A stretch of 64,000 nucleotides of DNA from a virus (IMGVR_UViG_3300028048_000072:68723-132722), one strand, 5' to 3'; shown: positions 12,400 to 54,577, counted from the stretch's first letter. The notes: generated by a model not told the origin, from the sequence alone. Made by a program: numbers and translations.

Positions 12400-12422
12400 C
12401 AAATTAACTATTTTAGTAATTG

Positions 12423-27780: not shown

Positions 27781-27926
27781 AAAAAATAATCATTTAAAAT
27801 TACTGTAATAATCCTTTACTATTTTTCTAGTAAAGGATTTTTTTATTTTAGTTTTTAACTTGAATGATGTTATACGATAGATTATACTAATATAAAACTT
27901 GATATATTAGAAGGAAGAATAAATTT

Positions 27927-28601: not shown

Positions 28602-28618
28602 AAGGAATTATATACATT

Positions 28619-29434: not shown

Positions 29435-29543
29435 TAACGTAGACCCTAAAGGAAATCATCACGTTCTTTAATTCTTGACATACAAAAAAAAAACAGTAAA
29501 ATAACTCCTAGAAAAAAATTTAGTTTTTCTAGGAGATTTTTTT

Positions 29544-29933: not shown

Positions 29934-30057
29934 TTAAATTGTAATTATCTAAAAAAAGAATGTATGTAAAAGTACATTCTTTTTTTTTATTTTTTTCACT
30001 TGATTATTATTATTTATTTTATTATAATTTATAAAAATTAATTCATTGGAGTTTTAT

Positions 30058-30474: not shown

Positions 30475-30549
30475 TTTTATTTTTTCACTTGACTATTCTT
30501 ATACAATTTGATATATTTATAATATCTTAGTTATATGAGAGGTGTATAT

Positions 30550-31212: not shown

Positions 31213-31331
31213 TTAATCTGAATAAAGTGGGAAAAATCATAAATTCCCACTTCTTTTCCCATTTTTCACTTGATTATTCTTATTCAATATAATATAATGT
31301 AAGTATCTTAGATGAAGTGAGGTAATGACCT

Positions 31332-32045: not shown

Positions 32046-32178
32046 TTAATATATAAGGGAGTAACTATATTTAGTGTAACCTCCCTTAGATATTTTTTTT
32101 GGTAACTGAATGTATTTATTTTAGTCTATTTTCATTTTATACATTCAGTTACCTTCTTTATTAAAAGGAAAAGAAATT

Positions 32179-32466
32179 ATGATTGAAGAAATTAAACCTA
32201 TTAATCCAATTATGGAATCGCATTTCAATAAAAATCTTGATAAATTCTTTATGATTAAAAATTATCAGAAATATTCTGAATCATCTGATAATACTAAAAT
32301 ATTTGAAGATTATTTGAATGAATATAAAAAATCTAAAGAAAAGAAAACAATTAAAAAAAATTCTAAAGAAAAAGAATTGCCAAAGATATTACCTTATTTC
32401 ATTGATAATATGGGTGCAGATATTCCTTATTGTGATATAAATAGGGTAAAAATGGCATATAATTAA
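32179..32466 (+). CDS. hypothetical protein
   Basis: ORF with AAGGA RBS. Confidence 0.5.
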   Translation: MIEEIKPINPIMESHFNKNLDKFFMIKNYQKYSESSDNTKIFEDYLNEYKKSKEKKTIKKNSKEKELPKILPYFIDNMGADIPYCDINRVKMAYN

Positions 32467-32551
32467 ATATTGTTTTTTTTTTGATTTAATATTACTATAT
32501 TAAATGTAATCTAATTTATAAAATATTTAGATATATAGGAGAATAAATATT

Positions 32552-33241
32552 ATGAAGAAATTTAATGAAAAGAAAATTGATTTTGAGGATAGAAAGAAAG
32601 CACTTGCACAATTCTTGAATCTTTCAGAAGAAGAAATGGAAGATATTGGAGAAGGTAGTGGTTCATATACTTCTTCAATGCTTGAATATGACGGTAATGA
32701 ATATCTTGTTCTTACAGAAGATGAATCTTATGATGAATTTAAAGAATGGGAAATGTCATTGATTGATGATTTAGGGTTAGAATCTTTCAGTGAAAACTTT
32801 CAGGAACATATTCTTGAAAACTGTATCAATGAATCATTTTTTGAAACTGTAGCAGATGAAGAAAGTGATTATTATATTGGTGAAATGGATGATGAAGAAC
32901 TTCTCGATTATGCACATAATCATAATATTGCAGAAGATGTAGAAGATACAGATAGTGAAGATTTTGACCGTTCAGACATTGAAGAAGAATGTAAAGATGC
33001 TTATAGAGAAGAAATTATTGATATGGGTATTTCTGAATACTTTGAATCTATCTATGGTCGTGGTTGGGTAAAAGAAATGAAGGATACTCTTGAAAAAGAA
33101 ATTGATTGGGATAAAGTAATTGAAGATTTATATGATTGGGATTCTCGTAATACTTTGTGGGGTTCTATGGCATCTTATGATGGTAAAGTAAATGAAGAAA
33201 AAGTTGATGGTGAATGGTTTTATATTTATTGGGTAAACTAA
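32552..33241 (+). CDS. extremely acidic protein (DNA-mimic or internal head protein candidate)
   Basis: about one third Asp/Glu; starts MKKFNE; TTACTAT at 32492. Confidence 0.7.
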   Translation: MKKFNEKKIDFEDRKKALAQFLNLSEEEMEDIGEGSGSYTSSMLEYDGNEYLVLTEDESYDEFKEWEMSLIDDLGLESFSENFQEHILENCINESFFETVADEESDYYIGEMDDEELLDYAHNHNIAEDVEDTDSEDFDRSDIEEECKDAYREEIIDMGISEYFESIYGRGWVKEMKDTLEKEIDWDKVIEDLYDWDSRNTLWGSMASYDGKVNEEKVDGEWFYIYWVN

Positions 33242-33323
33242 TTTATCAATAATATTATATCCTAGAGATTTATTTTTATTCTCTAGGATATATTTTTTTT
33301 TATTTATAAGAGGAATTTGTATT

Positions 33324-33668
33324 ATGTCTAATGAATTTAAATATATATCAATGTCTGATTTATTTAATCTTCCAAAACCTACTAGTGAAGAAATGAGATG
33401 GTCACCAAAATCAAATCCTTCCATTGTAGTATTATGTAAAGATGAAGAAGATGCTAACAGAATGTGTACACTTTATAATGATAAAGGAAATAATCAGTTT
33501 GTTTATGTTGTAAATAAATTTCAATTGTTAGGTCAAAATCCTATTGCCATTTTTATATCAAAGAATTTTAATAATGATGAATTGTTAAATCTTACTGTCA
33601 AAAGAGTTATTTCAAGATGTGGTGGTCATGCAGATTTTAAACAAGTATTTGTTGATGAAGAAGAATAA
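33324..33668 (+). CDS. hypothetical protein
   Basis: ORF with GAGG RBS. Confidence 0.55.
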   Translation: MSNEFKYISMSDLFNLPKPTSEEMRWSPKSNPSIVVLCKDEEDANRMCTLYNDKGNNQFVYVVNKFQLLGQNPIAIFISKNFNNDELLNLTVKRVISRCGGHADFKQVFVDEEE

Positions 33669-33696
33669 ATTCTATAAATAAACTTTATTAGAATAG

Positions 33697-33731
33697 AAAA
33701 GACCTAGATAAAAATAAATCTAGGTCTTTTT
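33697..33731. terminator. bidirectional terminator at the main strand-convergence point
   Basis: AAAAGACCTAGAT...ATCTAGGTCTTTT. Confidence 0.8.
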
Positions 33732-33745
33732 ATTTTATTCTTTAA

Positions 33746-33937
33746 TTACTTTTCATCTACAATTAAATTTCTATTTTTAGCCAATTTAATCAGATTTTCT
33801 TCATTTGGATATTTTTCCAAATAATACATAATTTCTTCATCAGTCATTGTGTTATCCCATGCGTTTAATCCTTCTTTTACGCAAAAGATTGTAAGGATAA
33901 TTACCAATACTGAAAGTAAGATAGATTTGATTTTCAT
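33746..33937 (-). CDS. small membrane or secreted protein
   Basis: N-terminal hydrophobic helix; AAGGGG RBS. Confidence 0.55.
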   Translation of the reverse strand: MKIKSILLSVLVIILTIFCVKEGLNAWDNTMTDEEIMYYLEKYPNEENLIKLAKNRNLIVDEK

Positions 33938-34069
33938 AAGATTTTCCCCTTTATGAATAAAAATATTGTAAGGTTTTTATTTATTCACCCTACATTTATA
34001 TTATCGTATTTTTATAATTTTAGTTAAGGGAAATTTGGGGAAAATAAGAGAAAATTTCCCTAATTTTCA

Positions 34070-34810
34070 TTAAATTTTAATTATTCCCTTTTTAATAAGA
34101 AAACTGATAACACATAAAATATGTTTTGAAAAAAATGGAAATATTATCCCTTTAGGTGTATTTAAAGCACCACTCAATTGACCATACAGACAATTAAATT
34201 TTTTTTGTAATTTATAATTTCTTGCCCAATCATCCATATACACATGATGAACTCTTGCGTTATAGTCACCAACATTAAGATAAGGGGCAGATTTTTTAAT
34301 TTTTTCAATTTCTTTATCTACAGCATCCTTTACTTCTTTTTTAGTCTTAAATTTTCTTTCAAATCTTTTGTTTAATCTTTCCCTAGTTTCACTATAAATT
34401 GTCTTTACAAATTTTTGACTAGGTTTTGTAGGTTTTTGATAACTTCCTATTCTCCATATAATTTTGCTATCCCAATAAGAATAACTACCATCAGATTTAG
34501 GTTGTAAAATAATTGTTATAGGATATTCATGTTTTATCTTCATCTGTTTTTTATATCTTTTATCTTTCAATTTTGTATATGGATAATATTGCGGGGCAGA
34601 TACACTTGTTATAGTGATTACTTCTCTAGGTGCAGATTTACTTTCTTTTTCCAATGCTTTTACACTGAATACTTTTCTATTCTGTATTTTAATCCTAGAA
34701 GGTAATACATCCCTATCCGCATATTCAAATCTAGTTTTGGTGAGTTTATTTCTATATGTATACTGATATACTTGTGATATTGTAGGTGTATTACTCTTAA
34801 ATCTTACCAT
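34070..34810 (-). CDS. basic hypothetical protein
   Basis: 246 aa Lys/Arg-rich ORF. Confidence 0.65.
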   Translation of the reverse strand: MVRFKSNTPTISQVYQYTYRNKLTKTRFEYADRDVLPSRIKIQNRKVFSVKALEKESKSAPREVITITSVSAPQYYPYTKLKDKRYKKQMKIKHEYPITIILQPKSDGSYSYWDSKIIWRIGSYQKPTKPSQKFVKTIYSETRERLNKRFERKFKTKKEVKDAVDKEIEKIKKSAPYLNVGDYNARVHHVYMDDWARNYKLQKKFNCLYGQLSGALNTPKGIIFPFFSKHILCVISFLIKKGIIKI

Positions 34811-34819
34811 AATATTTAT

Positions 34820-35440
34820 TTAATTATCTCCTTTTACTTTTATAAACTTTTTATGTCGTATTCTTTTTTCTATAAAAGAAACAGAATATTCTTCTTTAAT
34901 TCCTTTATTTTTACAATGTTTATTATTACTCCAACTGTCATAACCTATAAAGCATTTTTTAGAATCATCATAAGCAACAATACAGATATAATGACCACTT
35001 TCATAATCTGTATCATAAGATAGTACGATTGCACATTTATTTTTTAATACATCAATCATTTTTTTACAACAATCTTTATTTGTTCTGCTTGTAATTATTT
35101 CTGCAGTACAATCAGAAATTGCATTTATCCCTTTTACTAAATTTTCCATTACTTCATTTTCACAAACACCGTCTTTTTTATACATATCTGAATTATAGAT
35201 ATAATCAAATAAAAGGTCTGCATAAGTTATAATAGGTTTAGATGCTAAATATGGAAGTTTTACCCTAAATCCACCATTTACACTTTCTATAGCACAACAA
35301 CATGAATTTACATTACAAGTTTCTAGCCAAAAATTAACTTGTTTACTTTCTTTTAAATCTGCTAAAAACTTTTCAATTACTCTTTTTGTTTGGTCATATC
35401 TTATAGATGAATCATCCCATTTTACAGTACCATAAATCAT
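34820..35440 (-). CDS. C39-like cysteine peptidase (possible endolysin)
   Basis: TCNVNS, GHYICIVAYD, YDSW as a Cys-His-Asp triad pattern. Confidence 0.65.
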   Translation of the reverse strand: MIYGTVKWDDSSIRYDQTKRVIEKFLADLKESKQVNFWLETCNVNSCCCAIESVNGGFRVKLPYLASKPIITYADLLFDYIYNSDMYKKDGVCENEVMENLVKGINAISDCTAEIITSRTNKDCCKKMIDVLKNKCAIVLSYDTDYESGHYICIVAYDDSKKCFIGYDSWSNNKHCKNKGIKEEYSVSFIEKRIRHKKFIKVKGDN

Positions 35441-35465
35441 AAAAAAATACTCTCCTTTTTTAATT

Positions 35466-36029
35466 TCACCATACTTTGAATATGAATTTACCACCTTGAT
35501 AAACACATTCTAATCCAACAAATAAACCTAAAGATGTATAAAGATTAATCTTACCAACTAATTCATCACCTTTAGCAATATTATATATACCGTTACATGC
35601 AATAGGAATGGTACATAAAGGAATTGTAATATTTACAAATATAGATGTATTTCTCAATCTTCTTTTTACTGATGCTATATATTCCTTATAATTTTCTAAT
35701 TCTTCAAACATATTACCTAATTCATACAAAATTACACTTTCATCTTCTTTATTAGAAGAAAGGGCAGATTTTAATGAAATGATATTTTCTTCCAATTTAT
35801 TTATTTTAATTTCTGATTGTTCACACAATTTCATTAAATTGGCTTTTTCTAATGTAAGATTATTATTTTCATTTTTTAATGTTTCTGCAGAAAGAGAAAT
35901 TGATATAAAATCATTTTTAATATCTTCCAATAATTTATTCTGTTCATTTAAAGTAGAATCTATATAAGCATTAGAAAATAAAAGATTAGGAAATAATGCA
36001 ATAAAAAATACAATAATTAATTTTTTCAT
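35466..36029 (-). CDS. secreted coiled-coil protein with C-terminal TM segments (spanin-like candidate)
   Basis: signal peptide, coiled coil, hydrophobic C-terminus. Confidence 0.5.
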   Translation of the reverse strand: MKKLIIVFFIALFPNLLFSNAYIDSTLNEQNKLLEDIKNDFISISLSAETLKNENNNLTLEKANLMKLCEQSEIKINKLEENIISLKSALSSNKEDESVILYELGNMFEELENYKEYIASVKRRLRNTSIFVNITIPLCTIPIACNGIYNIAKGDELVGKINLYTSLGLFVGLECVYQGGKFIFKVW

Positions 36030-36050
36030 AAAATTACCTCCACCATTAAT

Positions 36051-36461
36051 TTATTCAGTAATATTCTTTATTTCTTCAATGTATTTATTAATTATAACTT
36101 GATTTTCTTGAATCTTTATAATTTTATCTAAACCACTTAAAGAAGTTTCAGATATTGATTCAATTTGAATGTCGATTTTAGATGAAATATCTTCAATTCT
36201 GTTTAATTTATTTTTCATGACTTCATTTTCTTTACTTAAAGCGTTTACTGTAATTTGAGAATTGTACAATATTTCTTCTATTTCAAAATTTCTCTTTTCA
36301 ATTTCCTTTAATTTATCTTGTGCATTTTTTAATGACTGTTCTATTTTAATAGAAGATGATTCCATAGATTTTATTCTCAAGCATCTTCCTAATAAAAATG
36401 CACCTAACACAGATAAAATAAAAATAATTACATGTACTGTTAAAAATTTAATATTATTCAT
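36051..36461 (-). CDS. N-terminal TM + coiled-coil protein (i-spanin-like candidate)
   Basis: TM helix then heptad repeats; CAACTAT 10 nt upstream of ATG. Confidence 0.5.
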   Translation of the reverse strand: MNNIKFLTVHVIIFILSVLGAFLLGRCLRIKSMESSSIKIEQSLKNAQDKLKEIEKRNFEIEEILYNSQITVNALSKENEVMKNKLNRIEDISSKIDIQIESISETSLSGLDKIIKIQENQVIINKYIEEIKNITE

Positions 36462-36549
36462 AGTATTCTAAATAGTTGTAAATTATATTATTTTTATAAA
36501 AAATTCAGACTTCATTATTATAAATGAAGTCTGAATAATAAAAAGAAGT

Positions 36550-36900
36550 TTATTTCTTCACTTTTGTGAAATTTGAAATTGTTTCTACCCAATTATCATT
36601 AAGTTTAAAAGTGTAAGCCTTTTTCTTTTCAATTTTATTAAAACTAATTACACCGTTTTCATAAAGTTGAATAATTCCTAATCTTCTAAACTGTCCTAAA
36701 TTGGTAGAACTCTTTCCCTTATCAGACTGATAATATCTTACAACTTTTCTACCACAAGATTCCATTAATTCAGTCTGTGAACCAATAAACAAATGGTCAT
36801 CATTGTTATTGCGTAAAAAATCTATAATATCTTTAGATTCCTTATTCAACATAGCATAACCTTTTGCAAATTTTATCAAATCATTTTCATTCTCAATCAT
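36550..36900 (-). CDS. hypothetical protein
   Basis: GGAGG RBS; TTGACA-like promoter. Confidence 0.55.
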   Translation of the reverse strand: MIENENDLIKFAKGYAMLNKESKDIIDFLRNNNDDHLFIGSQTELMESCGRKVVRYYQSDKGKSSTNLGQFRRLGIIQLYENGVISFNKIEKKKAYTFKLNDNWVETISNFTKVKK

Positions 36901-37184
36901 AACATTAATTCCTCCAAAAAATTAATTAGATATATACATAATAACATATTGTATAGAAATTATCAATGTAAAAAATAGTAAAAATTAATAATTTTGATTG
37001 AATAAAAATACTGATTACATTATAATCCTTTACACTATGAAAAAAGATTTAATAACTGAAACATGCGACATTATGTTAGAAATGGAAAAACATAATAATA
37101 GCATAACACAAATCGCAACTTATAAAAGAAAATCTGAAATTAATAAGAAATCTGAAATTAATACTAATAAGGAGAATAAAAATA

Positions 37185-37955
37185 ATGAAAAGCGGAAAGT
37201 ATGCAAAAAACAGAAAAAATCATGATGTAATAGAATACAATGGTAAAAGATACAATTATGACCAACTTTATAATCTCATTAAAGATACAGAATTTAAGAC
37301 TGTAGGTGATGATGTAGATTATAAAGTAACTAGAGGAATTTCTTTAGATACAAATAAACCATGTGTATTTATTCTATTTGAAGAAACAACTACCAAAACA
37401 GATTGGAAAAACAATTTTCTTTTCTTCCCAAAATCTAGTAAAGCATATAAAGGGTGGAAACATAAACTTGTATTCAACTTAGGTTTCTTTAGTGCATATC
37501 AGTCTGCAAGAGATGAATTTCTAAACGATGTAATTAATGAAATATATTCCCTTCCTACAGATGATTTTGATATTATAGTATGTGGATTCAGTTACGGGGC
37601 AACAATTACACAAATCGCTTGTGAAGATATTTATGAACACTTTAATATAAAACCAATTTTTATCGGTTATGAAGGTGCTAATCCATGCAGTAATCATAGA
37701 ACTAAAAAATATGTAGAAAGCATCCTGAATAAAGATTACAGTATCATGTTTGTAAATCAGAATGATATTGTTCCTAGATGCCCTCCATTTCCATTTGGAA
37801 GAAGAATAGAAAGTATTACATATTATATGAAACATAAATTAAAATATCCGTTCTTTTTCCCTTTAATAAGAAGTTTAATTGACAGTATTAAAAATACTGA
37901 AAAATATCATACTAAAGTTGATGAAGCAATTAAGGAATATATGGAAGTAGAATGA
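37185..37955 (+). CDS. lipase class 3 (alpha/beta hydrolase)
   Basis: DW..N, GF..AY, GFSYG nucleophile elbow, DIVPRCP, C-terminal His. Confidence 0.8.
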   Translation: MKSGKYAKNRKNHDVIEYNGKRYNYDQLYNLIKDTEFKTVGDDVDYKVTRGISLDTNKPCVFILFEETTTKTDWKNNFLFFPKSSKAYKGWKHKLVFNLGFFSAYQSARDEFLNDVINEIYSLPTDDFDIIVCGFSYGATITQIACEDIYEHFNIKPIFIGYEGANPCSNHRTKKYVESILNKDYSIMFVNQNDIVPRCPPFPFGRRIESITYYMKHKLKYPFFFPLIRSLIDSIKNTEKYHTKVDEAIKEYMEVE

Positions 37956-37956
37956 T

Positions 37957-38090
37957 AAAAAAAAAGAACCCGTACCTTTAATTAGGTACGGGGTAAGGTA
38001 ATTTAAGGAATGTATTGAAAAGGAAATAAGTGGAGGATTTTAATGTTCCTAAAACATTCCTTTTTTATTTTGGCAACTTTTTACTCTTAC
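37957..38090 (-). ncRNA. putative small RNA with anti-SD/anti-AUG loop and terminator
   Basis: TAACTAT at 38098-38104 (-); stem 38005-38013/38054-38062; loop CAUUAAAAUCCUCCACUUAU; terminator 37969-37992 + U-tract. Confidence 0.45.
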
Positions 38091-38101
38091 AAATAAAATA
38101 G

Positions 38102-39064
38102 TTAATCTACATAAACAATGTGGATAACATCTCTACTTACATTAATTGTTTCTACTTCCATAGTAAGTCTATTTTTGTATGATGAATTAATGTTGATATA
38201 TGTATGTTTATAACCATTAACATAATTATTTGTTACATTAAGTACACCATATGTAGAAAAATGACCACCTAATGAAGAACCAATTGGATTTAATTTATAG
38301 AAAGCCAATGTATCTTTATATTCTTCATAATATGTTTCATTTTCCAAACGTACAATAGCAACTTCATTAATTACGCTACCATATATTTTATTCTTTGCTA
38401 CAGTAATATGTGGATACAAAGTTACGTTACTTGTAATTGGCAATGTAGGGTCATATTCTGTTCCATCTTCATTTACAAGGTAATCATAACAAATATATGT
38501 ATCTTTATTATAATTACCAACATTAAGATTTACCCTCTTATTCTGTTCTGTAAAATAATTTTCAATATTGATTACTGTACCTTCTTCTACAGTTTTAGTC
38601 AGAACATCATAAGTATTATAGAAATCACGAACTGTAATTGTATAAGTAGGTGTTACATATTCATCAACGTGGAAATATACTCTAAGTTTTACAATACGAT
38701 TATCATCGCCAACATAAGAACCTTTGTATTCTTCTACACTATCATAAACATAAGTATAACGAACACCATTTTTTTCAACTACATCATTTTCAGGTTTTCT
38801 TAATTTAGAATTAACAAAATTATCAAATACTGAATTATTTGTATCAGATACTTCAACATCTGCAAATTCATCTTCAAGAATTGTTACGTTTTTACCGTTT
38901 TCAACTCTATAATACTGAATTGTAAGATTTACAAAACGTGTAGTATTGATAGGGTTAGGTGTAGGTGTAACATCTCCACTATCAACATCTGTTTCACAAG
39001 ATGTAGTGAAAGCCAACATAAATAAACCGAACAACATTGAAATAAAAACAAGTGCCTTTTTCAT
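38102..39064 (-). CDS. lipoprotein with repeat beta-domains
   Basis: MKK-hydrophobic-FTTSC lipobox, Pro/Thr linker, PITSNVTLY (InlB B-repeat-like). Confidence 0.7.
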   Translation of the reverse strand: MKKALVFISMLFGLFMLAFTTSCETDVDSGDVTPTPNPINTTRFVNLTIQYYRVENGKNVTILEDEFADVEVSDTNNSVFDNFVNSKLRKPENDVVEKNGVRYTYVYDSVEEYKGSYVGDDNRIVKLRVYFHVDEYVTPTYTITVRDFYNTYDVLTKTVEEGTVINIENYFTEQNKRVNLNVGNYNKDTYICYDYLVNEDGTEYDPTLPITSNVTLYPHITVAKNKIYGSVINEVAIVRLENETYYEEYKDTLAFYKLNPIGSSLGGHFSTYGVLNVTNNYVNGYKHTYININSSYKNRLTMEVETINVSRDVIHIVYVD

Positions 39065-39191
39065 AGTATTTGTCCTCTCTTTTAATTAGTAAGTTTTTAA
39101 AGAAACATCTCATTTCTTTATGTATAAATATTAACATAATGTATATTATTTGTCAAGGGAAATTATAGTGTTTTTTGTATAGTAAATCTGC

Positions 39192-39416
39192 TTAAATTAA
39201 TAAATATTTATTATTTTTATATACCAAAGTTATTGACTTTTCTTTAAGAAATTCATCTATATCTTTTCTGTACTTCACATAATAATCTTCCAACTTAATA
39301 TATCCGTTATTTAATTTATTACTGAATATAAACCAATCTTTAGGTAGACTTCTTACTCCATTTCTATAACACATATTCAATATATTCAACTTTTCATACA
39401 ATTTGCTTTTACTCAT
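39192..39416 (-). CDS. hypothetical protein
   Basis: 74 aa ORF. Confidence 0.45.
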   Translation of the reverse strand: MSKSKLYEKLNILNMCYRNGVRSLPKDWFIFSNKLNNGYIKLEDYYVKYRKDIDEFLKEKSITLVYKNNKYLLI

Positions 39417-39527
39417 AATATTTATACTATACCGATTTATATTAATATGGTAAAGAATAACAAAAAAAAGAAGTGGTAGATTTTCTTCATACCACTTCTT
39501 CTTTTTTAAGAATCTATATTATCTATG

Positions 39528-40016
39528 TTATTCAACACAAATATCAAATTCCTTTGGTTTTGCCTTATCAGAATAAGGAATGATTACTTTCAACAAACCA
39601 TCTTTCAATGTGCTTTTTAATTTAGAAACATCATATTTTGAAAGTGGAACATAATAAGAAGTTGAGAAGTTTTTACACTTAATTCCTTTCTGTGCATAAA
39701 CCTTTTTCTTCTTACCATCCTTTTCTTCTACATCTGCTCTATTAGATTTTAATGTAATGTAATCATCTTTATATGACAAAGAAATTTCATTTTTTGAATA
39801 TCCTGCAAGGGCAAATTCATAAACCAAATTATCTTCTTCATCTTGATAGATATTACATGGTGGGAATTGAGCAGATGCATAATCAGAACCAACGAATGAT
39901 TTTGTGTTATCATCTGTAAAAAGATTTAGAAATTCATTATCAAATGAATTCATCCAATTGCAAAAATCCTCTACACTGTCAGACGGATTTTTAAAAGTTG
40001 TTTTTGTATAAAACAT
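39528..40016 (-). CDS. Hsp20/alpha-crystallin small heat-shock protein
   Basis: FPPCNI, EFALAGY, KDGLLKVIIP. Confidence 0.9.
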   Translation of the reverse strand: MFYTKTTFKNPSDSVEDFCNWMNSFDNEFLNLFTDDNTKSFVGSDYASAQFPPCNIYQDEEDNLVYEFALAGYSKNEISLSYKDDYITLKSNRADVEEKDGKKKKVYAQKGIKCKNFSTSYYVPLSKYDVSKLKSTLKDGLLKVIIPYSDKAKPKEFDICVE

Positions 40017-40166
40017 ATCTATAACTCCTTAAAGATTTAATGATGAATTCTAATAATCTAGCAATTCACCATTTTATCTTTATTATACCCTTATATCATT
40101 ATGTTTATATTTATCTACTTTCTTTATTTAACATAGTTAAAATAGAATATTGACTGATATAAACCA

Positions 40167-40268
40167 TGTGTACGCAAAAGTAGACAATTGTGCATTTTTG
40201 TATACAGTGTATACTTTTTAATACAAGTGTATACTTTTGTAGACACCTATGTATACTTTTGTATACTA
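40167..40268. repeat. array of about five degenerate ~20-22 bp repeats (TGTATACTTTTGTATAC consensus)
   Basis: GTATAC at 40200, 40209, 40229, 40251, 40261; GTAGAC at 40180, 40239. Confidence 0.75.
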
Positions 40269-40294
40269 TATTTTCTTATTGTGTTTTCTTCTTC

Positions 40295-40522
40295 CTACTT
40301 TTCTTTTTTATTACCTTCAAATACAGAAAGATATTTCTTGTATGATTTATTATTCATTCCTAGCAAATCTTTACAAGATAAAAGACTTTTTCTGATGAAA
40401 ACTTTATTTTCTAATGTGGTGATTTTGTAATAATATACTCCCATAGTAGTATATCTTTCAATATCACCAATTTTCTTATTTGTGGTTTTACCCTTATATT
40501 CTCTTGAATTAAATACTTCCAT
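40295..40522 (-). CDS. small basic hypothetical protein
   Basis: GGGAG RBS. Confidence 0.5.
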   Translation of the reverse strand: MEVFNSREYKGKTTNKKIGDIERYTTMGVYYYKITTLENKVFIRKSLLSCKDLLGMNNKSYKKYLSVFEGNKKEK

Positions 40523-40735
40523 AATTATTTATTTCTCCCTTATCACATATTTAATATAATCTATTTGTGCAGAAAGTCTTTTTAGATTTTCATTTAATGA
40601 ATTCATGTTTTCTATTGTCTTATTCATATTTATGATAATTTCATTAATATGAGTATTTACTTCATCTATCTGATTTCTAATTAAATCTTCATTTACCATA
40701 ATTTATTTTTTATCCTCCACTTCTAAAAAAAAAGA

Positions 40736-41056
40736 TTATTTATTCACTACTCTATAAATTATTAAAGGTATGGCTATGATTGGAATATATAGCCAATTAA
40801 AAAGAATGGAAAGTTTATTATATAGATGCTCATGATTTACAAGTTTTAGAATATTTTTATTTTTATACTTATTATTTAATATGATGTAATTTCCCCATGC
40901 AAAAGAATCTAAACATACCTCTTTACAGAAATAAACTTTCACTACTCTATTATCTTCACATATTACTTTTTTAGTAGAAGTAAGTTTATTATTTTCTATA
41001 ATATATTTTCCAATTAAATTTTGTGGAAGTTGCCAAATAAAACTTAGTATATTCAT
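40736..41056 (-). CDS. hypothetical protein (WQLPQNLIG...HEH)
   Basis: ORF with RBS; degenerate HExxH. Confidence 0.55.
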   Translation of the reverse strand: MNILSFIWQLPQNLIGKYIIENNKLTSTKKVICEDNRVVKVYFCKEVCLDSFAWGNYIILNNKYKNKNILKLVNHEHLYNKLSILFNWLYIPIIAIPLIIYRVVNK

Positions 41057-41309
41057 TGTATATCCTTATTGTTTATCTTCTGTATCATCAACAATCGCTT
41101 TTACCCAAAATACCATAAATATAAACAATGCAATCATTCCAATTAAAAATGTTAGAAGTTCCATAAATCACTTATTTCCTTTTATATTTAATATTATATA
41201 TCATATAAAATTAACGGTCAATAAAAAACTAGGTGATTTTTTTAATTATATCACCTAGTAAAAAACTTTCACCTTTATAGAGGTATGACTGTGCTTAAAG
41301 TTTTTTTAT

Positions 41310-41720
41310 CTATCTTTTTAATACTTGATTTACTTTATAAAGTTCCTTATTGAAAAAATCTTTTATTTCATCAATCTTAGAATATACAAATGAATCATAA
41401 TAATTATCTACTCTATTTAAAATATCCAAAATATAATTTAATGTTTCAAGTATAAGTTCTGCAGAATTTGTGGTGCTTACTTCTGATGGTTCTAATGGAA
41501 TCCAATCTACTCTTACACAAGAAGTTGCCATACTTCCAACATATTCACCATATCCAATTGCAGTTTCTACTAAATCATCATAGAAATCTTCTGCTTCACT
41601 ATACAAATCTTCTGCTACTTCATGAAAACGATAAAATTCTTCACCTTTAGCATTAAAATGAAGTGTTCTCATATCAAAGAAAAATACTGCCATGTTATCG
41701 GCAATTTCAGAAAGTGTCAT
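41310..41720 (-). CDS. Dps/ferritin-like protein
   Basis: LHFNAKGEEFYRFHEVAEDLY...DDLVE matches the Dps signature. Confidence 0.75.
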   Translation of the reverse strand: MTLSEIADNMAVFFFDMRTLHFNAKGEEFYRFHEVAEDLYSEAEDFYDDLVETAIGYGEYVGSMATSCVRVDWIPLEPSEVSTTNSAELILETLNYILDILNRVDNYYDSFVYSKIDEIKDFFNKELYKVNQVLKR

Positions 41721-41755
41721 ATCATTAATTCTCCTTATGAATAATATAGTTATGT

Positions 41756-41858
41756 AAAAAAAGAAGGGTTCATTGAGAAAAAGGGGTTATTCTCAATGAA
41801 CCCAATATATGAAACAGATTTAAGACAAGAGAGAGTAAAGAATCTTAAATCTGTAATC
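41756..41858 (-). ncRNA. putative two-hairpin small RNA with CU-rich loops
   Basis: CAACTAT at 41862-41868 (-); perfect 12-bp and 14-bp stems; loops UUCUUUACUCUCUCUUG and UAACCCCUUU; U-tract. Confidence 0.5.
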
Positions 41859-41871
41859 AACATAGTTGTGT

Positions 41872-43005
41872 TTAGAGTTTTTTACTTCTAAACAAGAACA
41901 ATGCTACGGGTGAAATAATATCGATGAAAACAGATACAATCATCATGATAATCATCTGCAAAACTTCACCTTTAATTCCAAACAAATCTCCTACAAGATT
42001 ATAAAATGTCTTAGGTTTTGTTTCAACATTATTATTCATATCAAGATTATTTTCTTCAACAATATTCATTTTTTCAATTGTCAAAGATGTAATCTTATCA
42101 TTAATTTCTTTAATACGATTATTACGTCTATTTAACTGATAATTCAAATCACCATTTCGTACACCTTTATCATTTTCAATATTGTACTGAATCTGTGAAG
42201 AAATATCATTCTTTTCTTTTTCAAGTCCATTCTTTTCTTCTTTAAGAAGATTAATCATTTCATCAATAGAATTCTTTTTAGAATCTGCAAGAATTACAGT
42301 TTTATTTTCTACACGATAAATATCGATTGTTTTCTGTAATCTTGTAAAATTTACATCTGCAGATGAATACATTGAAAAAATAATTGTGATAATTGATGTA
42401 ACTACCAAAATAAAAGACATTCCCTTTTTCTTTTTGCGTTTCAAATCTTCTACAAACTGTAATCCAATCAAGGAATAAATAAACATAGAAGATGAAAGTG
42501 TTACTGCAATAATCTTTGTACCTATATATTTGTATAGGTAATCTGATGTATAATAAATAGAAAGACAAGCACATACAATTGATACATAAAGTAAGAACCA
42601 TCTTCCAACATTTTCAAAAGAGAATACATTAGAAAGAGTAATGTCTTTTTTAATCTTCAAATTTGTATTTGACTTTTCTTCTGATGTAGTATCTTTTACC
42701 AAATCAGTATTCATACCAAATTCTTCCTTTGCCTTATCTGTAAGATTCAATACTACGGCATTTTTTCTATTGCTCAACGGATTAATTGGTTTAGTTGGTC
42801 TAAGAACAAGTTTACCTGCTTCTTTAGATTTAGCATAATCATATCTTGCTTCTGTTCTTTTCAAGAATCCATAATCTTCGGGTGTTATAGTAGGAATAAC
42901 ATTATATTCCAAAAGTACACCATCTGATGTGAGAATCTTATCATTAGATACTTTAATGTATCTAATACCCAATCTGTTGTTTACAAAAGTTTTAATGTTT
43001 GCCAT
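41872..43005 (-). CDS. multi-TM membrane protein with coiled coil
   Basis: three TM helices, long coiled coil, C-terminal TM. Confidence 0.7.
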   Translation of the reverse strand: MANIKTFVNNRLGIRYIKVSNDKILTSDGVLLEYNVIPTITPEDYGFLKRTEARYDYAKSKEAGKLVLRPTKPINPLSNRKNAVVLNLTDKAKEEFGMNTDLVKDTTSEEKSNTNLKIKKDITLSNVFSFENVGRWFLLYVSIVCACLSIYYTSDYLYKYIGTKIIAVTLSSSMFIYSLIGLQFVEDLKRKKKKGMSFILVVTSIITIIFSMYSSADVNFTRLQKTIDIYRVENKTVILADSKKNSIDEMINLLKEEKNGLEKEKNDISSQIQYNIENDKGVRNGDLNYQLNRRNNRIKEINDKITSLTIEKMNIVEENNLDMNNNVETKPKTFYNLVGDLFGIKGEVLQMIIMMIVSVFIDIISPVALFLFRSKKL

Positions 43006-43072
43006 TTTAAATACCCCTTTAGCAATTCATATTATGTATAAACTTTAACATAAATTGCTAAAGTATGTCAAG

Positions 43073-44770
43073 TCAATTTTCAATAAATCCTAAATAATTT
43101 TTCCAATATTTTGAAGAAACATCACTAAAGGATTCAAATTTAGTTATCTGTGTTTTAGTATATATTTTAGATGGGTCTAAATTCATATCCTTACATATAG
43201 AATAAACTACTTTAGGACTACAATAAGAATTCAATGAAGTCCCTAATGCAATATTTTTACCTTCAGATTTAATATCTTTATTTACATTTGCTCTTTCAAG
43301 ACTTTCCTTAATTCTTTCAACTTTAGATTTTGCCTTTTCAAGTTGAGTACGATATTTTTCTTCTGATGCTTTAAGTCCTTTTTCCTTACAATGTTTAATT
43401 TTTACAGAAAGATATTTTTTCTTATTCTTAAAATTTTCTTCTTCAAGAGAAAGATTCTTTTTCAATGTGGAAATTTTATCAGACATTTTTTCCATGTTCT
43501 TTTTAAAAGATTCTTCGCCTTTTGCAGTTGTACCTTTCTGATGATTGAGATAAAGAGCAACATCTGCGTTTGCCTTTACGAAAATCTGTTTCTTTTCAAA
43601 ATCTTTCATATTTGATTTAATCTTTGCTTTATTAATCGATTCACATAAAACTGCAGAACCAATTGCACTTCTGAATGTTTTTGGACTAGCATCTTTGTAA
43701 ATAGATTTGATAAATTTTGAAACATCGTTACTTGAAATAGAAAACAATTCATCATTAGGTTTCTTATCTTTAATCTGATTTACAAAGTGATTATAAATAT
43801 CTCTAGGGATTTTATCAGTTTTAGAATAAGGAACACTGTCTTTTCCTAAAAAATCCAATTTGAGAATATAATTATCATTCTTTTCAAATACTTTAATATT
43901 CTTTACTTTAAGAGTTGTTACACCTACAGTATCTGCTTGGAATTCTTCTCTTTCATTACCGATACGGATAGCATAAGTTTTAACCATCCATGTTGCTAAT
44001 GCAATTTCACGATTTCTCTTAAATTTTGAATTCAATTCTTCTTTAATTTTTTCATCAAATTCTGTAAAGTGTCTAAGAAGATTTAATGCTTTTTCGTGTT
44101 TATGTTCCGTATTTTTAATCTGTCCTTTGAATGTTGCAGATGGTCTAATTGATTTTGTAATAGGTGGAAATCCACCACTTAATCTAATTTTATAAGAAAC
44201 AATCCAATCTACATCTTTTTTAGAAACAACGTTAAATCCCTTTTCTATAAGTTTTTTCTTACATTCTTCATCACCAATTACGTTGATTGTAATATCTTTT
44301 TCTGTAGTAGGATATTTAAAACAGAACATTCTTTTATCACCACCACGTACAATCAAAGCGTTCATTTCTTCAACCATATATCCCGCTAACTGTACTTTTT
44401 CACCATCAATAATTGCGTATCCATATTCTTCTTTTTCTGATGATTTTATCTTTTCAATTTCTTCTTTATGTTCTTTATTATAAATTTTCTTTTCTTCTTT
44501 TCTTCTTTCACAATCAGATTTCATTTTAGAACAAAGTTTTTCAAATTCATCCATATTATTTTTAATATCAACGGAAGAATCAATTTCTTTCATACCATTT
44601 ATAAAATTTGTGAAAGAATATTTGTTATCATAAGTATATTGTCTATCAGTATTTGCCCATCTGTAAATATATCTTTCTGCCATTGGTGAAAGTTTTTTAC
44701 CTAAAAATTCATAACCAAAATATTCAGTCTTTGGTATTTTACATCCGTTATAAGAAATTGATTTATACAT
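43073..44770 (-). CDS. DNA topoisomerase IB, long eukaryote/archaeal type
   Basis: RIGNE, FLGKDS, KTFRS, LNHQK, coiled-coil linker, ALGTSLNSYCSP. Confidence 0.9.
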   Translation of the reverse strand: MYKSISYNGCKIPKTEYFGYEFLGKKLSPMAERYIYRWANTDRQYTYDNKYSFTNFINGMKEIDSSVDIKNNMDEFEKLCSKMKSDCERRKEEKKIYNKEHKEEIEKIKSSEKEEYGYAIIDGEKVQLAGYMVEEMNALIVRGGDKRMFCFKYPTTEKDITINVIGDEECKKKLIEKGFNVVSKKDVDWIVSYKIRLSGGFPPITKSIRPSATFKGQIKNTEHKHEKALNLLRHFTEFDEKIKEELNSKFKRNREIALATWMVKTYAIRIGNEREEFQADTVGVTTLKVKNIKVFEKNDNYILKLDFLGKDSVPYSKTDKIPRDIYNHFVNQIKDKKPNDELFSISSNDVSKFIKSIYKDASPKTFRSAIGSAVLCESINKAKIKSNMKDFEKKQIFVKANADVALYLNHQKGTTAKGEESFKKNMEKMSDKISTLKKNLSLEEENFKNKKKYLSVKIKHCKEKGLKASEEKYRTQLEKAKSKVERIKESLERANVNKDIKSEGKNIALGTSLNSYCSPKVVYSICKDMNLDPSKIYTKTQITKFESFSDVSSKYWKNYLGFIEN

Positions 44771-44832
44771 AAATATCTCCTAAATATAAAAACGGATAGA
44801 GTGAACTTTTAAATTCACCCTATCCGAAAATA

Positions 44833-45108
44833 TTAATGAATAGAACTTGTACGGAAATTACGGAACGATTTTGATACGATAGTTTTTGTGATTCCTTTTT
44901 CTGCAAGTTTATTGTAGTCCAATCTACCATCAAATCTTACATCAGTAACAATTTTTTCACCAAAAACTTTCTTCACAAGATTCTGTTCTTTTCTGTCCAA
45001 CTTTCTAAGGTCAAAACCTTGAACATAAGTTGAATCCTGATGAATTACCAAAACACGTCTAGTTTCAGTTTCATTCTTTGCATTAGTGTACTTGAATGTT
45101 GTAATCAT
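44833..45108 (-). CDS. small WYL-like (SH3-fold) protein
   Basis: FKYTNAKNETETRRV...GFDL...RNFRTSSI; AGGGG RBS before ATG 45108. Confidence 0.5.
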   Translation of the reverse strand: MITTFKYTNAKNETETRRVLVIHQDSTYVQGFDLRKLDRKEQNLVKKVFGEKIVTDVRFDGRLDYNKLAEKGITKTIVSKSFRNFRTSSIH

Positions 45109-45292: not shown

Positions 45293-47776
45293 TTAATTAA
45301 TTTTACGAATAAAGAAATTTGCAGATACATAATTATATTCATTATACGATTGAATAGGTGGAAAAGTCATGTATGCTAAAATTTCATGATTTACATTTTC
45401 TATTGCAATTTCTTTAATATTATTTTTATCTGATGATTCAGTTTTATAATTGAAATAAACATTTGAATTTTTCAACATATCCATATCTTCATCATAATCG
45501 TAAGAAATTATAACTTTATAATAGTCAGTATTACTTAAAACTAAATTTACTTTAGGATTTAAAGAATCATTCCATGTATAATTTATGTCTGAACTAACAA
45601 CACCTTCACCTTCAAAATGTCCTTCACCATTATCAGTATAACTTTTTATAACACCATCATTAAAATAGATTGTTACTGTAATTGTGTTAGGTTTGTATTC
45701 ACAATTAGAATCTATAATTTCATCATAAATTGTATCACTAATAATGAGCGATTTATTTTTTATACTCTTAGATACATAGGTATTCAATATAAATAAACCC
45801 GTATTATAATCAATATGTCCACCTACGGGAATTTGTGCATTGTTATCATCAAGATAATAAAAATCACCATTGGCATCTGAATAAACTTTGATTTCTTCTG
45901 TAGTAAATACAAGGTCTTTTAAGTAAGTAAAATTAAATGTTTTACTCTTTATTGGTGAAAAATTTGTATATCCAATGTATGTTTTTTCATCCCCAATTCT
46001 TACACCAAATTCATTTCTAATATCATTACATGATACTTGTGAAGAAATCAATGTCCATAAATCTGTTTCTGTTATTTCAGATGAGTCATCTAATTCATAT
46101 TCTGCTAATTTATTTCCTAAATGAGTAATGATTCCATATTTTGTATTGTATAAATATTGGATTTCATCTTCTGTATAAATTTTATTCATGATATATAAAT
46201 CATCAATAATACCGATAAATTTTAATTCATCTTCATCATTTTCTATATTAGAATTTGTACCTATGTATAAAGGATATTGTCCCGCAAATGTTACAGATGA
46301 AATATCAATACTTTCTTCCAAAACGCTATTCACATAAATATTTAATAAATTATCATCAGTATTAAATTCAAAAAGAATATTATAATTTATGTTCTGTTCT
46401 GCAGATATATAATAAGTCTGTCCATTAAATTCAATTTCAAATTGTCCAACATCATAATCATAATAAACTTTTAAAAAGTCAAAATCTATAGCACAAATTC
46501 TATCATCAGATGATTGTGAATAAGGTTTAATCCAAAAACCAAAAGTAAAATTATCATTAATTATAATTAAATTTGAATTACTCTTTACATAAGTTGAACC
46601 ATCCAAATCTACACTTTTTCCTACAATACCTTCTATTTTTTTAGTATTTCCATAAACTGTAGCATTATAATAATTTTGAGAATAATCTTTAATTTCATCA
46701 CTTCCATCATCATCACTAAATGTATAGAACAACATCATTTTATTATATTGATAAACATCTTTATATTTTTCTTGTACTGTAGGTAAACTTCCACTTCCAC
46801 AAGAAATATACTTAAATTCTTCTGTAGATGGTCTACCAGTTCCTTCAACATCTGCATCCAATTTATAATTTACTAAATTATCCAAAGTCTGTTGTGTATC
46901 CAATATAAATTTTTCTTCTTTTGTAAACCCTTTCATATAATTGAATCCACAACAACTTCTTAATTGTAAATCAGGAATAGAAAATTCACCATTTAAATTA
47001 AAATAATCATATCCTTCTGTCTCATATAAGAAAGAAGATACTTGAATACCAATATGTGGAATAATAGGACATCGTTTAGTATACATTGCACCTTGCAAAA
47101 GGTATTCAAAAAATTCTGATGTAATCAAATATGTGTTATCATTTTTAGTATAAACTTTATCAGAATAATATTCCAATCCTAAATGTTTAGTAGGTGTAAT
47201 TCCTGCGTTTTTATCCAATCTCCAAATCTTTTTTCCTATCTTTTGGTCTAAAGTATATCCACTATCCAATGTGATTTTTTCAAGGCTAGAAATAGATGAA
47301 AAGTTTTTATCTGCATCCATTCTATAAAATGGTTCTGAATAAGAAATTGTGTTATTGTTTATATATTCAATAATATCATCTGATAAAATTGCACGAATGA
47401 ATTTATCATTATTCCAATAAAAATTGTATACTTCACCTAATTTTGAAATCTGTTTGAATATAATATTATACCCATTATAATTTGTTTTATTTCTAATTCT
47501 AAATGGAATAGATTCATATTCTTTTCTAAGCATTTCAAGAGAATTATCTACAATAAGATTTGGTGTATAACCAAACATTTCAGAATCATTAATTATACCA
47601 TCTTGTAATTGAACAGAATAATCATATAAGTATCTTGTTTCTGTCATTTTTTCTCTTTCAAGATACAATTCTCTTGCTATGGCTTCCATAAACTGTAACC
47701 ATAAATCATCAATTTTTAAAGATGATAATAAATTATATTCCAAAAATCTGTATTGTGGTAATTCTTTATCTTCCAT
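45293..47776 (-). CDS. baseplate/tail structural protein with LamG (concanavalin-like) domain
   Basis: DYSQN...GIVGKSVDLDG...FTFGFWIK...FIGIIDDLYIMN; C-terminal IKEIAI...ILAY. Confidence 0.7.
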   Translation of the reverse strand: MEDKELPQYRFLEYNLLSSLKIDDLWLQFMEAIARELYLEREKMTETRYLYDYSVQLQDGIINDSEMFGYTPNLIVDNSLEMLRKEYESIPFRIRNKTNYNGYNIIFKQISKLGEVYNFYWNNDKFIRAILSDDIIEYINNNTISYSEPFYRMDADKNFSSISSLEKITLDSGYTLDQKIGKKIWRLDKNAGITPTKHLGLEYYSDKVYTKNDNTYLITSEFFEYLLQGAMYTKRCPIIPHIGIQVSSFLYETEGYDYFNLNGEFSIPDLQLRSCCGFNYMKGFTKEEKFILDTQQTLDNLVNYKLDADVEGTGRPSTEEFKYISCGSGSLPTVQEKYKDVYQYNKMMLFYTFSDDDGSDEIKDYSQNYYNATVYGNTKKIEGIVGKSVDLDGSTYVKSNSNLIIINDNFTFGFWIKPYSQSSDDRICAIDFDFLKVYYDYDVGQFEIEFNGQTYYISAEQNINYNILFEFNTDDNLLNIYVNSVLEESIDISSVTFAGQYPLYIGTNSNIENDEDELKFIGIIDDLYIMNKIYTEDEIQYLYNTKYGIITHLGNKLAEYELDDSSEITETDLWTLISSQVSCNDIRNEFGVRIGDEKTYIGYTNFSPIKSKTFNFTYLKDLVFTTEEIKVYSDANGDFYYLDDNNAQIPVGGHIDYNTGLFILNTYVSKSIKNKSLIISDTIYDEIIDSNCEYKPNTITVTIYFNDGVIKSYTDNGEGHFEGEGVVSSDINYTWNDSLNPKVNLVLSNTDYYKVIISYDYDEDMDMLKNSNVYFNYKTESSDKNNIKEIAIENVNHEILAYMTFPPIQSYNEYNYVSANFFIRKIN

Positions 47777-52516: not shown

Positions 52517-54577
52517 TTAGGCTAGTTTTAATCCCAATTTATCATAAATTTCATCACCAAATGTTTTTAATGAATGTTGAGATTTTTCAAATTCTAATTG
52601 TTCATCAAAAATATATTGTGGGTCTAATGTTCCAAATCTATCTGCAAGTGTACAACATCCTACAACGCTATCGACAACATCTTTCCCAAAATACCCCAAC
52701 CTGCTTGTAGTCCAATCTTCATTCTCAAAATCACACCATTCGCCTTTTATATGGTCAATTTTATTATGTAAACCTTTTCCATCTTGTGTTTTAGAATAAA
52801 TTAATGCTTTATAATTATTCTTTGCTATAATATTTCTACCCATTTTTACACGTCTTTGAGTTAATGCAGAAACATGACTTAAATAAGGTTCAATAGGGTA
52901 GTCTACAGATAATTTAATACAGTCAATTCCAATTCGATTTAAATATTGAATTGTGGTATCACTTTGGAATCCATCAAGAGAAACTTTACCAAATTTTATT
53001 CCACCATAAACTGACATATCTCTTATTAAATATCTAAAGGCATCCATATTTATTTCTTCTTTTGTTGCTAGAATAGGCAAACTGAAATCAACAATATACA
53101 CTTTTTCACCTTTAGTGTTTTGTTCCAAATGACACATAGAAATACAAGCCATATCATGTGTTTTTGCCAAGTCTATTGAAGCAAATCTAACTGCAAAAGG
53201 ATTTCTATAAAAAGTATAATTACTTCCTACACCACTATAAACAAATAATCCGCTGTTTTTTACAATATCCCATAAAAGATTTTCAGACGGCAAAGAAGTT
53301 GGTGCATGATGAAACATTAAGAAGTTTTTAAGATTTTCTGTAAACGCATCTTCAATAACATCATAATTAGTGATAAGTTTAAGGTCATTACCACCACTAG
53401 GAACAGCACCATAGTCTTTTAAGATTTTAGATGGTGTATCCATAGCAACATCATATAAATCTATAGGCATATCTATTAATTCGTCATCGTTATAATTTTT
53501 CCTTTCTTCTTCACTAATAATCTTACAAGGTTTTGCAACATTACCTTTAAACATTGTAAATACTTTTGAATGGTCTTTTTGATAAATTGGAAACAAATGT
53601 TCTTGAATTTCCCATTTTTTATGATTTGAATAAAGAATATTTTTATCATCTTTATGTTGTGCAATCCATTGGTCTGCCAATCCTTCCATACTATTAGGAG
53701 ATGAATCGATAATGATTGTAGTTTCTGTATTATTATAACCAAAACGAGATGCTACACGATTTATACCGTCTGTTAACATTCGCATAACTCTTTCTTCAGG
53801 CATTTGTTCACACAAAAATGCCATTTCAGTTACAGAAAAATTTAAAATTGTTCTTCCGACCAAATCTGACGGTTCACAAGCAACATCAAAATAAACATCA
53901 CCAATTCTAATGATAGAGTTACCGTTTGAAGTATTACACCAAAGAATTTTCCCACTATTAAGATATTCGGGGTTGGTCATATCTCTTTCATATCTTAATT
54001 TATGAAACATCGTGGAGTTTTCCATAATAGAAATCATCGGTTTTAATACCAAGTCATAACAAGTTGATTTTGTAAAAGAAACCGAAGTATCAGTTAATCG
54101 TGTAGAACGAGCCAATTTAAAATATTGTTTAGGATTTCGCAAAGATAGCGTATAAACTGCACGAAATAATTTTAACAAACCAACAAGCGTACTCTTTCCA
54201 AAACCGATACAATCGTATAATACATCTGTATTTTTACCATTCATTGGATTAAAAAATGTTAGAAAATTTTCTTTAATATGGGGATATAAATCTTCTGACA
54301 TTGAGCCAATCCATTTATCAGTTAAAAATTCTTCGGGTGTAACTTTAAAAGTATGATTTATTTTCCATGAGTTTTCTAACAAATTACCCTTTTCGTTTTC
54401 AGATAATTTTTCATCATGTAAAATTACTTTCATTGCAGAATTAATATTATCTATATCACTCGCATCCAACATTTTAAAAACATCTTGTAAGTAACTCAAA
54501 TCTTCTTGTGGATGTGCTATAACATCTTTACATATATCTACCAAATTTTTATCTACATTCATTGTCCAATCTTCCAT
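52517..54577 (-). CDS. terL: terminase large subunit
   Basis: IGFGKST Walker A, IDSSP coupling motif, SIDLA...D, DGFQS, KDVVDS nuclease acidic residues. Confidence 0.8.
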   Translation of the reverse strand: MEDWTMNVDKNLVDICKDVIAHPQEDLSYLQDVFKMLDASDIDNINSAMKVILHDEKLSENEKGNLLENSWKINHTFKVTPEEFLTDKWIGSMSEDLYPHIKENFLTFFNPMNGKNTDVLYDCIGFGKSTLVGLLKLFRAVYTLSLRNPKQYFKLARSTRLTDTSVSFTKSTCYDLVLKPMISIMENSTMFHKLRYERDMTNPEYLNSGKILWCNTSNGNSIIRIGDVYFDVACEPSDLVGRTILNFSVTEMAFLCEQMPEERVMRMLTDGINRVASRFGYNNTETTIIIDSSPNSMEGLADQWIAQHKDDKNILYSNHKKWEIQEHLFPIYQKDHSKVFTMFKGNVAKPCKIISEEERKNYNDDELIDMPIDLYDVAMDTPSKILKDYGAVPSGGNDLKLITNYDVIEDAFTENLKNFLMFHHAPTSLPSENLLWDIVKNSGLFVYSGVGSNYTFYRNPFAVRFASIDLAKTHDMACISMCHLEQNTKGEKVYIVDFSLPILATKEEINMDAFRYLIRDMSVYGGIKFGKVSLDGFQSDTTIQYLNRIGIDCIKLSVDYPIEPYLSHVSALTQRRVKMGRNIIAKNNYKALIYSKTQDGKGLHNKIDHIKGEWCDFENEDWTTSRLGYFGKDVVDSVVGCCTLADRFGTLDPQYIFDEQLEFEKSQHSLKTFGDEIYDKLGLKLA

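Follow-up and report, generated by a model that had tools for sequence, protein, structure and literature searches.

Introduction

The long form of topoisomerase IB (TopIB) has been described as eukaryotic and, among prokaryotes, thaumarchaeal (PMC2621148, PMC4824112, PMC8185306), and this distribution has been taken to mean that the ancestor shared by Archaea and Eukarya had the enzyme (PMC2621148, PMC4824112). In human and other eukaryotic Topo70 (PDB 1A36, 1K4T, 1RRJ), a cap, a catalytic core, a helical linker and a C-terminal domain with the active-site tyrosine follow one another and provide five catalytic residues. The archaeal enzymes (Thaumarchaeota topIb, PMC4824112, PMC2621148; Caldiarchaeum CsTOP1, PDB 6Z01, PMC8748870) are 500-600 aa long, lack an N-terminal extension and contain three Pfam domains. 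Giant viruses (NCLDV MAGs) encode long forms as well; these copies are abundant in IMG/VR, and many of them have a shorter linker or N-terminal extensions. The short TopIBs of vaccinia, variola and Deinococcus (PDB 1A41, 2H7F, 2F4Q) comprise 310-350 aa, with a small unrelated N-terminal domain and without cap, linker or Topo_C_assoc domain. In phages, a 'phage-specific' topoisomerase I has been noted in the jumbo phages phiRSL1, Lu11 and PaBG (PMC7824862). No report of a long TopIB in phages was found in a full-text literature search, and PHROGs v4 holds no family for it.

Here we analyse a stretch of 64,000 nucleotides (the window), the right-hand half of a linear virus record in IMG/VR that has 132,722 bp, 27% GC and a CheckV completeness of ~72%. 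A first-pass annotation, made from this DNA alone, had proposed that an ORF at positions 43073-44770 encodes a long, eukaryote-type TopIB in a tailed phage.

Results

Architecture of the phage topoisomerase

The ORF (43073-44770, minus strand) comprises 565 codons from ATG to the TGA stop. By architecture, it is a complete long-form TopIB, with a PF02919 cap, a PF01028 core that carries Arg-Lys-Arg-His, a helical linker and a PF14370 domain that carries the active-site Tyr. Topoisom_I_N (PF02919) matches residues 19-198 with 63.7 bits against a cut-off of 25, Topoisom_I (PF01028) matches residues 214-442 with 144 bits, above the curated cut-off, and Topo_C_assoc (PF14370) matches residues 489-547 with 45.6 bits against a cut-off of 25.1. 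In a phmmer search of the PDB, residues 12-552 align end to end with residues 34-559 of human Topo70 constructs (E 1.6e-45; 24-28% identity). The archaeal Caldiarchaeum enzyme scores almost equally (PDB 6Z01; E 4.6e-45), whereas the short vaccinia TopIB reaches only E 0.004. Because the human alignment begins at residue 12, the phage protein has no N-terminal extension; the long charged N-terminal domain with nuclear-localisation signals of eukaryotic nuclear Top1 is absent.

The cap, or N-terminal DNA-binding lobe, comprises residues 1-205 (44156-44770, minus strand). It contains the peptide quoted earlier as Top1-like, EEYGYAIIDGEKVQLAGYMVEE, two nose-cone helices (residues 73-116; 44423-44554, minus strand) and the pair R142-G143, which corresponds to human R364-G365 and is invariant in an 18-sequence alignment (A1). 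The catalytic core comprises residues 206-412 (43535-44155, minus strand). Four residues of the catalytic pentad lie here, R269 (codon 43964-43966), K310 (43841-43843), R367 (43670-43672) and H410 (43541-43543), and correspond to human R488, K532, R590 and H632. The linker, residues 413-503 (43262-43534, minus strand), is followed by the C-terminal domain, residues 504-565 (43076-43261, minus strand), in which ALGTSLNSY aligns with human ALGTSKLNY/SY and the active-site Tyr516 (codon 43223-43225) with human Y723. The five codons, all on the minus strand, were verified, and all five residues are invariant across the 18 aligned sequences. The motifs named in the first-pass annotation, RIGNE (R269), GKDS (K310), KTFR (R367), NHQK (H410) and ALGTSLNSY (Y516), are thus all in place in their human-Top1-like contexts.

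An AlphaFold2 model calculated on the 18-sequence alignment has a mean pLDDT of 90.3 and a pTM of 0.79. The model places helices 73-94 and 99-116 in the cap as nose-cone helices, and two long antiparallel helices (416-464 and 467-503; pLDDT ~90) at the place expected for the coiled-coil linker before the catalytic Tyr. In Foldseek comparisons, the model superposes on human Topo70-DNA complexes with TM 0.82-0.86 over ~585 columns, including the linker-containing structures 1RRJ and 1K4T (TM 0.82). The short TopIBs of variola and Deinococcus, which share the catalytic core and chemistry, match the core only (2H7F, 2F4Q; TM ~0.3). With 565 aa, a cap and a linker, the phage protein is distinct from the short pox and bacterial type, and it does not consist of a core alone behind an unrelated N-terminus, as do the TopIB-core proteins of cultured jumbo phages.

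Residues of the human enzyme that contact camptothecin are kept in the phage protein (R364 as R142, D533 as D311). At the position of human Asn722, the phage protein has Ser515. N722S is one of the human camptothecin-resistance mutants, and the title of PDB 1RRJ names such mutants.

The gene in its phage genome

The contig is an uncultured tailed bacteriophage (myovirus) of the cattle gut with bacterial-type replication genes. The strand of the TopIB gene also carries, at a distance of 3 kb, a baseplate wedge gene (phrog_219, 2.5e-39), and other parts of the record encode a tail sheath (phrog_23) and a tail lysin, confirming that the long-form enzyme belongs to a tailed phage. Other genes of the record encode PolA, a DnaB-like helicase, a DnaC-like loader, an ATP-dependent ligase, SbcCD, NrdD, an intein-bearing GroEL and several homing endonucleases. 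The nearest relatives of PolA are in Paenibacillus, Bacillus and Staphylococcus phages (41%). The structural proteins are highly divergent, the sheath being 22% identical to any deposited phage. A host search with the IS605 TnpB led to a cluster of 382 sequences at 95% identity but to no named host organism.

On its strand, the TopIB gene comes immediately after the genes of the baseplate and tail-fibre block. A GGAG Shine-Dalgarno sequence is located 6 nt 5' of its ATG (44777-44780, minus strand). Directly before this ribosome-binding site, an intrinsic-terminator-like hairpin with a 15-bp stem and a T run (44793-44826, minus strand), found by a terminator scan and inspection of the sequence, ends an upstream ORF of 132 aa. 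Since a strong terminator precedes the ribosome-binding site, transcription of the TopIB gene may need read-through or an unrecognised phage promoter. Directly 3' of the TopIB stop and before the next gene (41872-43005), a promoter scan gave a sigma-70-like candidate by consensus match only (43042-43071, minus strand; TTGACA, 18 nt, TAAAGT with TG).

Between the baseplate wedge gene and the TopIB gene, an 827-aa protein (45293-47776, minus strand) contains a Laminin_G_3/concanavalin-like lectin domain at residues 392-540 and probably binds the receptor as part of the baseplate or a fibre. Just 3' of the TopIB gene, its strand also encodes a Hsp20/alpha-crystallin small heat-shock protein (39528-40016, minus strand) and a Dps-like DNA-binding protein (phrog_3636; 41310-41720, minus strand). 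An NrdD-like anaerobic ribonucleotide reductase of 832 aa (57993-60491, minus strand) is covered by its PHROG profile over residues 1-414 and 503-829; the ~90 aa left unmatched between them may be a small insertion.

We asked whether the gene truly belongs to this genome, as the record is a metagenome-assembled linear contig, 72% complete, in which a chimeric join was conceivable. Both junctions are spanned by contigs of other studies, which are 99.8-100% identical to the record: one (X8) covers 44367-44934 with 1 mismatch and spans the TopIB start and the upstream ORF, and another (X20), from a metatranscriptome run, covers 43004-43266 with 0 mismatches and spans the TopIB end and the downstream gene. 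DNA of the gene is present in bovine-gut metagenomes of at least 10 studies. In composition, the gene is typical of the phage (GC 26.7% against a mean of 26.8%; GC3 15.2% against 15.4%; codon-usage distance rank 16 of 44), and homologues occur in other phages. The probability that the gene is an assembly chimera or contamination foreign to the phage is therefore practically negligible, and the reservation about the contig that the first-pass annotation had attached to its reading falls away. Contigs from an RNA library also cover the gene and weakly support expression, DNA carry-over being possible.

Relatives of the phage enzyme

A word-seeded search of 5.8 billion proteins returned relatives at 98, 86, 76, 51 and 43% identity, followed by a gradient to archaeal and eukaryotic Top1 at 28-30%. 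HMMER, run exhaustively against 1.84 billion representatives, gave 1,206 relatives, of which the best ~28 clusters are all 545-590 aa long, align end to end and outscore every eukaryote-length protein. The phage-borne family comprises ~28 clusters at 50% identity. An alignment-based scan of IMG/VR gave 157 relatives, mostly in giant-virus MAGs, with the nine best (L002-L010) in large unclassified viral contigs; the same database scanned with the single protein as query gave no match. A metagenome scan gave relatives at <=35% identity only. The GTDB genome scan used a single narrow peptide pattern and under-samples.

In a tblastn search of 50,697 deposited phage genomes, the window's protein had no match, and the divergent members L003 and L008 matched only a 606-aa 'putative topoisomerase I' of Rhizobium phages (in phage RHph_N46, QXV73959; MW980063.1; L095 460-2280, plus strand). 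Like the window's protein, it is phage-encoded and has a TopIB-type catalytic core. However, the core (residues 340-563) stands behind a 340-aa N-terminus without Pfam match, PF02919 and PF14370 are absent in the Pfam search, and BLASTP aligns it with the window's protein over the core only (22% identity over 191 aa, E 0.001). We considered this protein as an earlier long form in cultured phages and rejected it, as it has the catalytic core only. It corresponds to the 'phage-specific' topoisomerase I of jumbo phages (PMC7824862).

Two large phages carry members of the family. L003 lies in a complete 329-kb genome with terminal repeats (G001), flanked by a 2239-aa ORF without family match (922-7641, minus strand) and a rIIA homologue (12164-14599, plus strand; phrog_612, 5e-85). 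G001 and the window's phage have ~30 genes in common (22-31% identity), among them those for the baseplate wedge, helicases, ligase and GroEL; TopIB, at 29.7% identity, has the third-best score among them. Because the divergence of TopIB resembles that of the other shared genes, long vertical residence is favoured over recent separate acquisitions. L008 lies in a 388-kb, 98%-complete record of a myovirus with a strong tail-sheath match (1e-71). The genomic neighbourhood of the TopIB gene differs between phages. For the other TopIB-bearing records, searches with Pfam hallmarks (NCLDV capsid PF04451, sheath PF04984, Terminase_6C) were mostly silent, and PHROG profiles and gene-content comparison were informative. 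Taken together, the TopIB gene fits better as a long-standing, vertically inherited resident of large, low-GC tailed bacteriophages of animal guts than as the product of recent separate acquisitions.

The comparison with G001 gave two further observations. The best-conserved protein between the two phages is encoded by a 686-aa ORF of the window (52517-54577, minus strand; 27% over 711 aa, E 9e-65). Searches of Pfam, PHROG and PDB gave no match for this core protein of the phage group. The window's phage has 4 tRNA genes only, none of them inside the window, whereas G001 has 22, of which 19 are in one 17-kb cluster (G001 25080-42142).

Some long forms are found under cellular labels. L086 is on a 117-kb contig of a MAG labelled Thermoplasmatales, the only one of 251 genomes sampled in its phylum to have the domain; Methanomassiliicoccales are reported to be without Topo IB (PMC4153887). 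For both reasons, the contig is probably viral or mis-binned. The L086 gene is flanked by genes for RtcB, UPF0164, an AAA ATPase, a DHH phosphoesterase and a radical-SAM/SPASM protein. In the phylum of a Bathyarchaeia MAG, by comparison, the long TopIB occurs in 122 of 301 genomes. A MAG labelled Gammaproteobacteria (G011; L089/L096), from a class of small genomes (0.7-1.8 Mb), contains a long TopIB in a 504-aa ORF that stops before the active-site Tyr region, and three further genomes of this class contain ordinary short TopIBs of 333-352 aa (L097-L099).

The first-pass annotation, which called the long form typical of eukaryotes and some archaea, left out the giant-virus MAGs, in which the long form is also common.

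Phylogenetic position

The phylogeny was calculated with IQ-TREE (LG+C20+F+G4 PMSF; 70 rows, 563 columns; UFBoot/SH-aLRT supports). The named eukaryotes are animals only, the other long sequences being unnamed. The window's protein groups with L003, L005 and 18 metagenomic clusters in clade A (100/96; proteins of ~550-590 aa), and L006-L010, L086 and three clusters form clade B (100/98), which includes the 388-kb myovirus. Members of both clades found among metagenomic proteins are known as proteins alone, without genomic context. The Archaea (19 rows; Nitrososphaeria-type, Bathy-, Aenigm- and Thorarchaeota) form a 100/100 clade, and eukaryotes and NCLDV form another; neither has a phage-type row inside. 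The two are joined with 97/92 support, and the phage-type groups branch successively outside both, in concordance with an earlier quick tree of 90 rows. The phage TopIB family is a deep branch outside the archaeal and the eukaryote/giant-virus clades. The window's protein is therefore a long TopIB by architecture that falls in neither cellular lineage. This deep phage-borne lineage is new, no description having been found in the searched literature, whereas the kind of enzyme itself is known.

The short forms L097-L099 are separated from every long form by a long branch with 100% support; grouping with short bacterial enzymes, which the first-pass annotation had set against its own reading, is thus not seen. 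Its description of an unusual lineage is borne out by the separate deep branch but not in the sense of a one-off, as the family has ~28 clusters with members in 329-kb and 388-kb phages. A metagenomic protein of 572 aa (P0146) forms a lone long branch between clade B and the archaeal and eukaryotic clades (100/97) and could represent one more lineage, as yet unsampled.

When the tree is rooted on L097-L099 and the Rhizobium-phage core, the root falls among clade A and the phage sequences become a basal grade out of which the archaeal and the eukaryote/giant-virus clades arise, long-branch attraction being an obvious risk. Phage monophyly is not rejected in an AU test (p = 0.35). For these two reasons, we draw no root placement. 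One reading of the grade is that long-form TopIB is ancestrally a tailed-phage gene and that archaeal and eukaryotic Top1 descend from a virus-borne enzyme, which would parallel the viral-origin proposals published for eukaryotic topoisomerase IIA. As long-branch attraction would yield the same picture, and the AU test does not favour this reading over a monophyletic phage sister clade, we consider it unlikely.

Alternative origins of the gene

Two other origins would make the phage gene an acquisition from a cellular or giant-virus lineage. The virus may infect an archaeon and have taken the gene from its host lineage: the long TopIB is a lineage feature of some archaea, as the Bathyarchaeia phylum shows, a clade B member lies in a MAG labelled Thermoplasmatales, and methanogens live in the cattle gut. 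However, the DnaB-like helicase, the DnaC-like loader, PolA and GroEL are of bacterial type, PolA is nearest to phages of Firmicutes, and a Shine-Dalgarno sequence precedes the ATG. All 19 archaeal sequences are in a clade without any phage-type sequence, where the long TopIB is a chromosomal lineage marker, whereas the phage copy is carried by a virus of bacteria; the Thermoplasmatales label itself is undermined by the rarity of the domain in that phylum and by the report on Methanomassiliicoccales. An archaeal origin of this kind is very unlikely. Alternatively, the gene could be a recent gain from a eukaryote, such as a rumen ciliate or fungus, or from a giant virus, and the separate lineage merely a fast-evolving offshoot. 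The similar identity to archaeal and eukaryotic Top1 (28-30%) would agree with this, as would the long branches of the window's subclade, its weak Pfam N-domain score (63.7 bits against 183-223 in clade B) and the restriction of named eukaryotes to animals. Against this, eukaryotes and NCLDV share a fully supported clade that contains no phage copy; the composition of the gene is fully phage-like; many phage-like contigs carry homologues at 30-98% identity; and the divergence from the distantly related 329-kb phage is like that of other shared genes. We regard a recent gain as extremely improbable. Long residence of a separate lineage in phages is the reading that we retain.

Predicted function

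The phage TopIB is very probably an active enzyme, as its pentad is intact, at least 28 clusters conserve the protein and the clamp fold is modelled with confidence. Going by its human and archaeal homologues, the enzyme would clamp duplex DNA between the cap lobe (residues 1-205) and the catalytic lobe (residues 206-412 and 504-565). Tyr516, helped by R269, K310, R367 and H410, would nick one strand via a 3'-phosphotyrosyl bond, the DNA would swivel, restrained by the helical linker (residues 413-503), and the nick would then be resealed. Positive and negative supercoils would be relaxed without ATP or Mg2+. In the phage, TopIB would most likely provide the swivel when a large AT-rich genome is replicated and transcribed, in place of a T4-type topoisomerase II.

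Neither a type IIA (PF00521) nor a type IA (PF01131) topoisomerase has a Pfam match in the window's record, which is ~72% complete and in which divergent phage topoisomerases may escape the Pfam model. PF00521 has no match in the complete 329-kb genome (G001) or in the 98%-complete 388-kb record (G002) either. With no sign of another topoisomerase, the most likely role is that of an ATP-independent swivel that serves the phage in replication and transcription, and we consider it reasonably likely. The main rival is a virion-associated or late role, because the gene adjoins tail genes: the enzyme would be active, but might travel in the virion to act early, as in poxviruses, or might take part in recombination, genome-end processing or host takeover. 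The place of the gene right after the co-oriented baseplate and tail-fibre genes fits a late or virion-associated role, the strong terminator just before the ribosome-binding site points the same way, and the gene of the 329-kb phage adjoins rIIA and the 2239-aa ORF. On the other hand, the architecture is that of processive clamp-type swivelases with no extra domain, no other topoisomerase was detected in three carrier phage genomes, and the neighbourhood varies between phages, which argues against a role in a fixed structural module. A main role other than the general swivel is thus doubtful. The swivel reading also enters the explanation as a whole, in which an intact, active long-form TopIB acts as the swivel of a large AT-rich phage genome and is a long resident of a low-GC gut phage lineage; we hold this explanation to be probable, with good confidence.

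Discussion

The TopIB of the window is one member of a widespread family, not a singular oddity. The diverse and deep-branching phage long TopIBs are a third player in the history of the enzyme, beside eukaryotes with giant viruses and archaea, and the family bears on the origin of the eukaryotic enzyme. The direction of transfer, from virus to cell or from cell to virus, becomes testable with better-rooted trees. The compact phage long forms (565 aa here) lend themselves to structural and mechanistic studies of the enzyme family to which the human target of camptothecin belongs.

For the phages, the long TopIB apparently replaces a type II topoisomerase, a different answer to the problem of supercoiling in the replication of large genomes. 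Some large phages would thereby bring a predicted eukaryote-style, ATP-independent swivel into bacterial cells, which to our knowledge are without such an enzyme.
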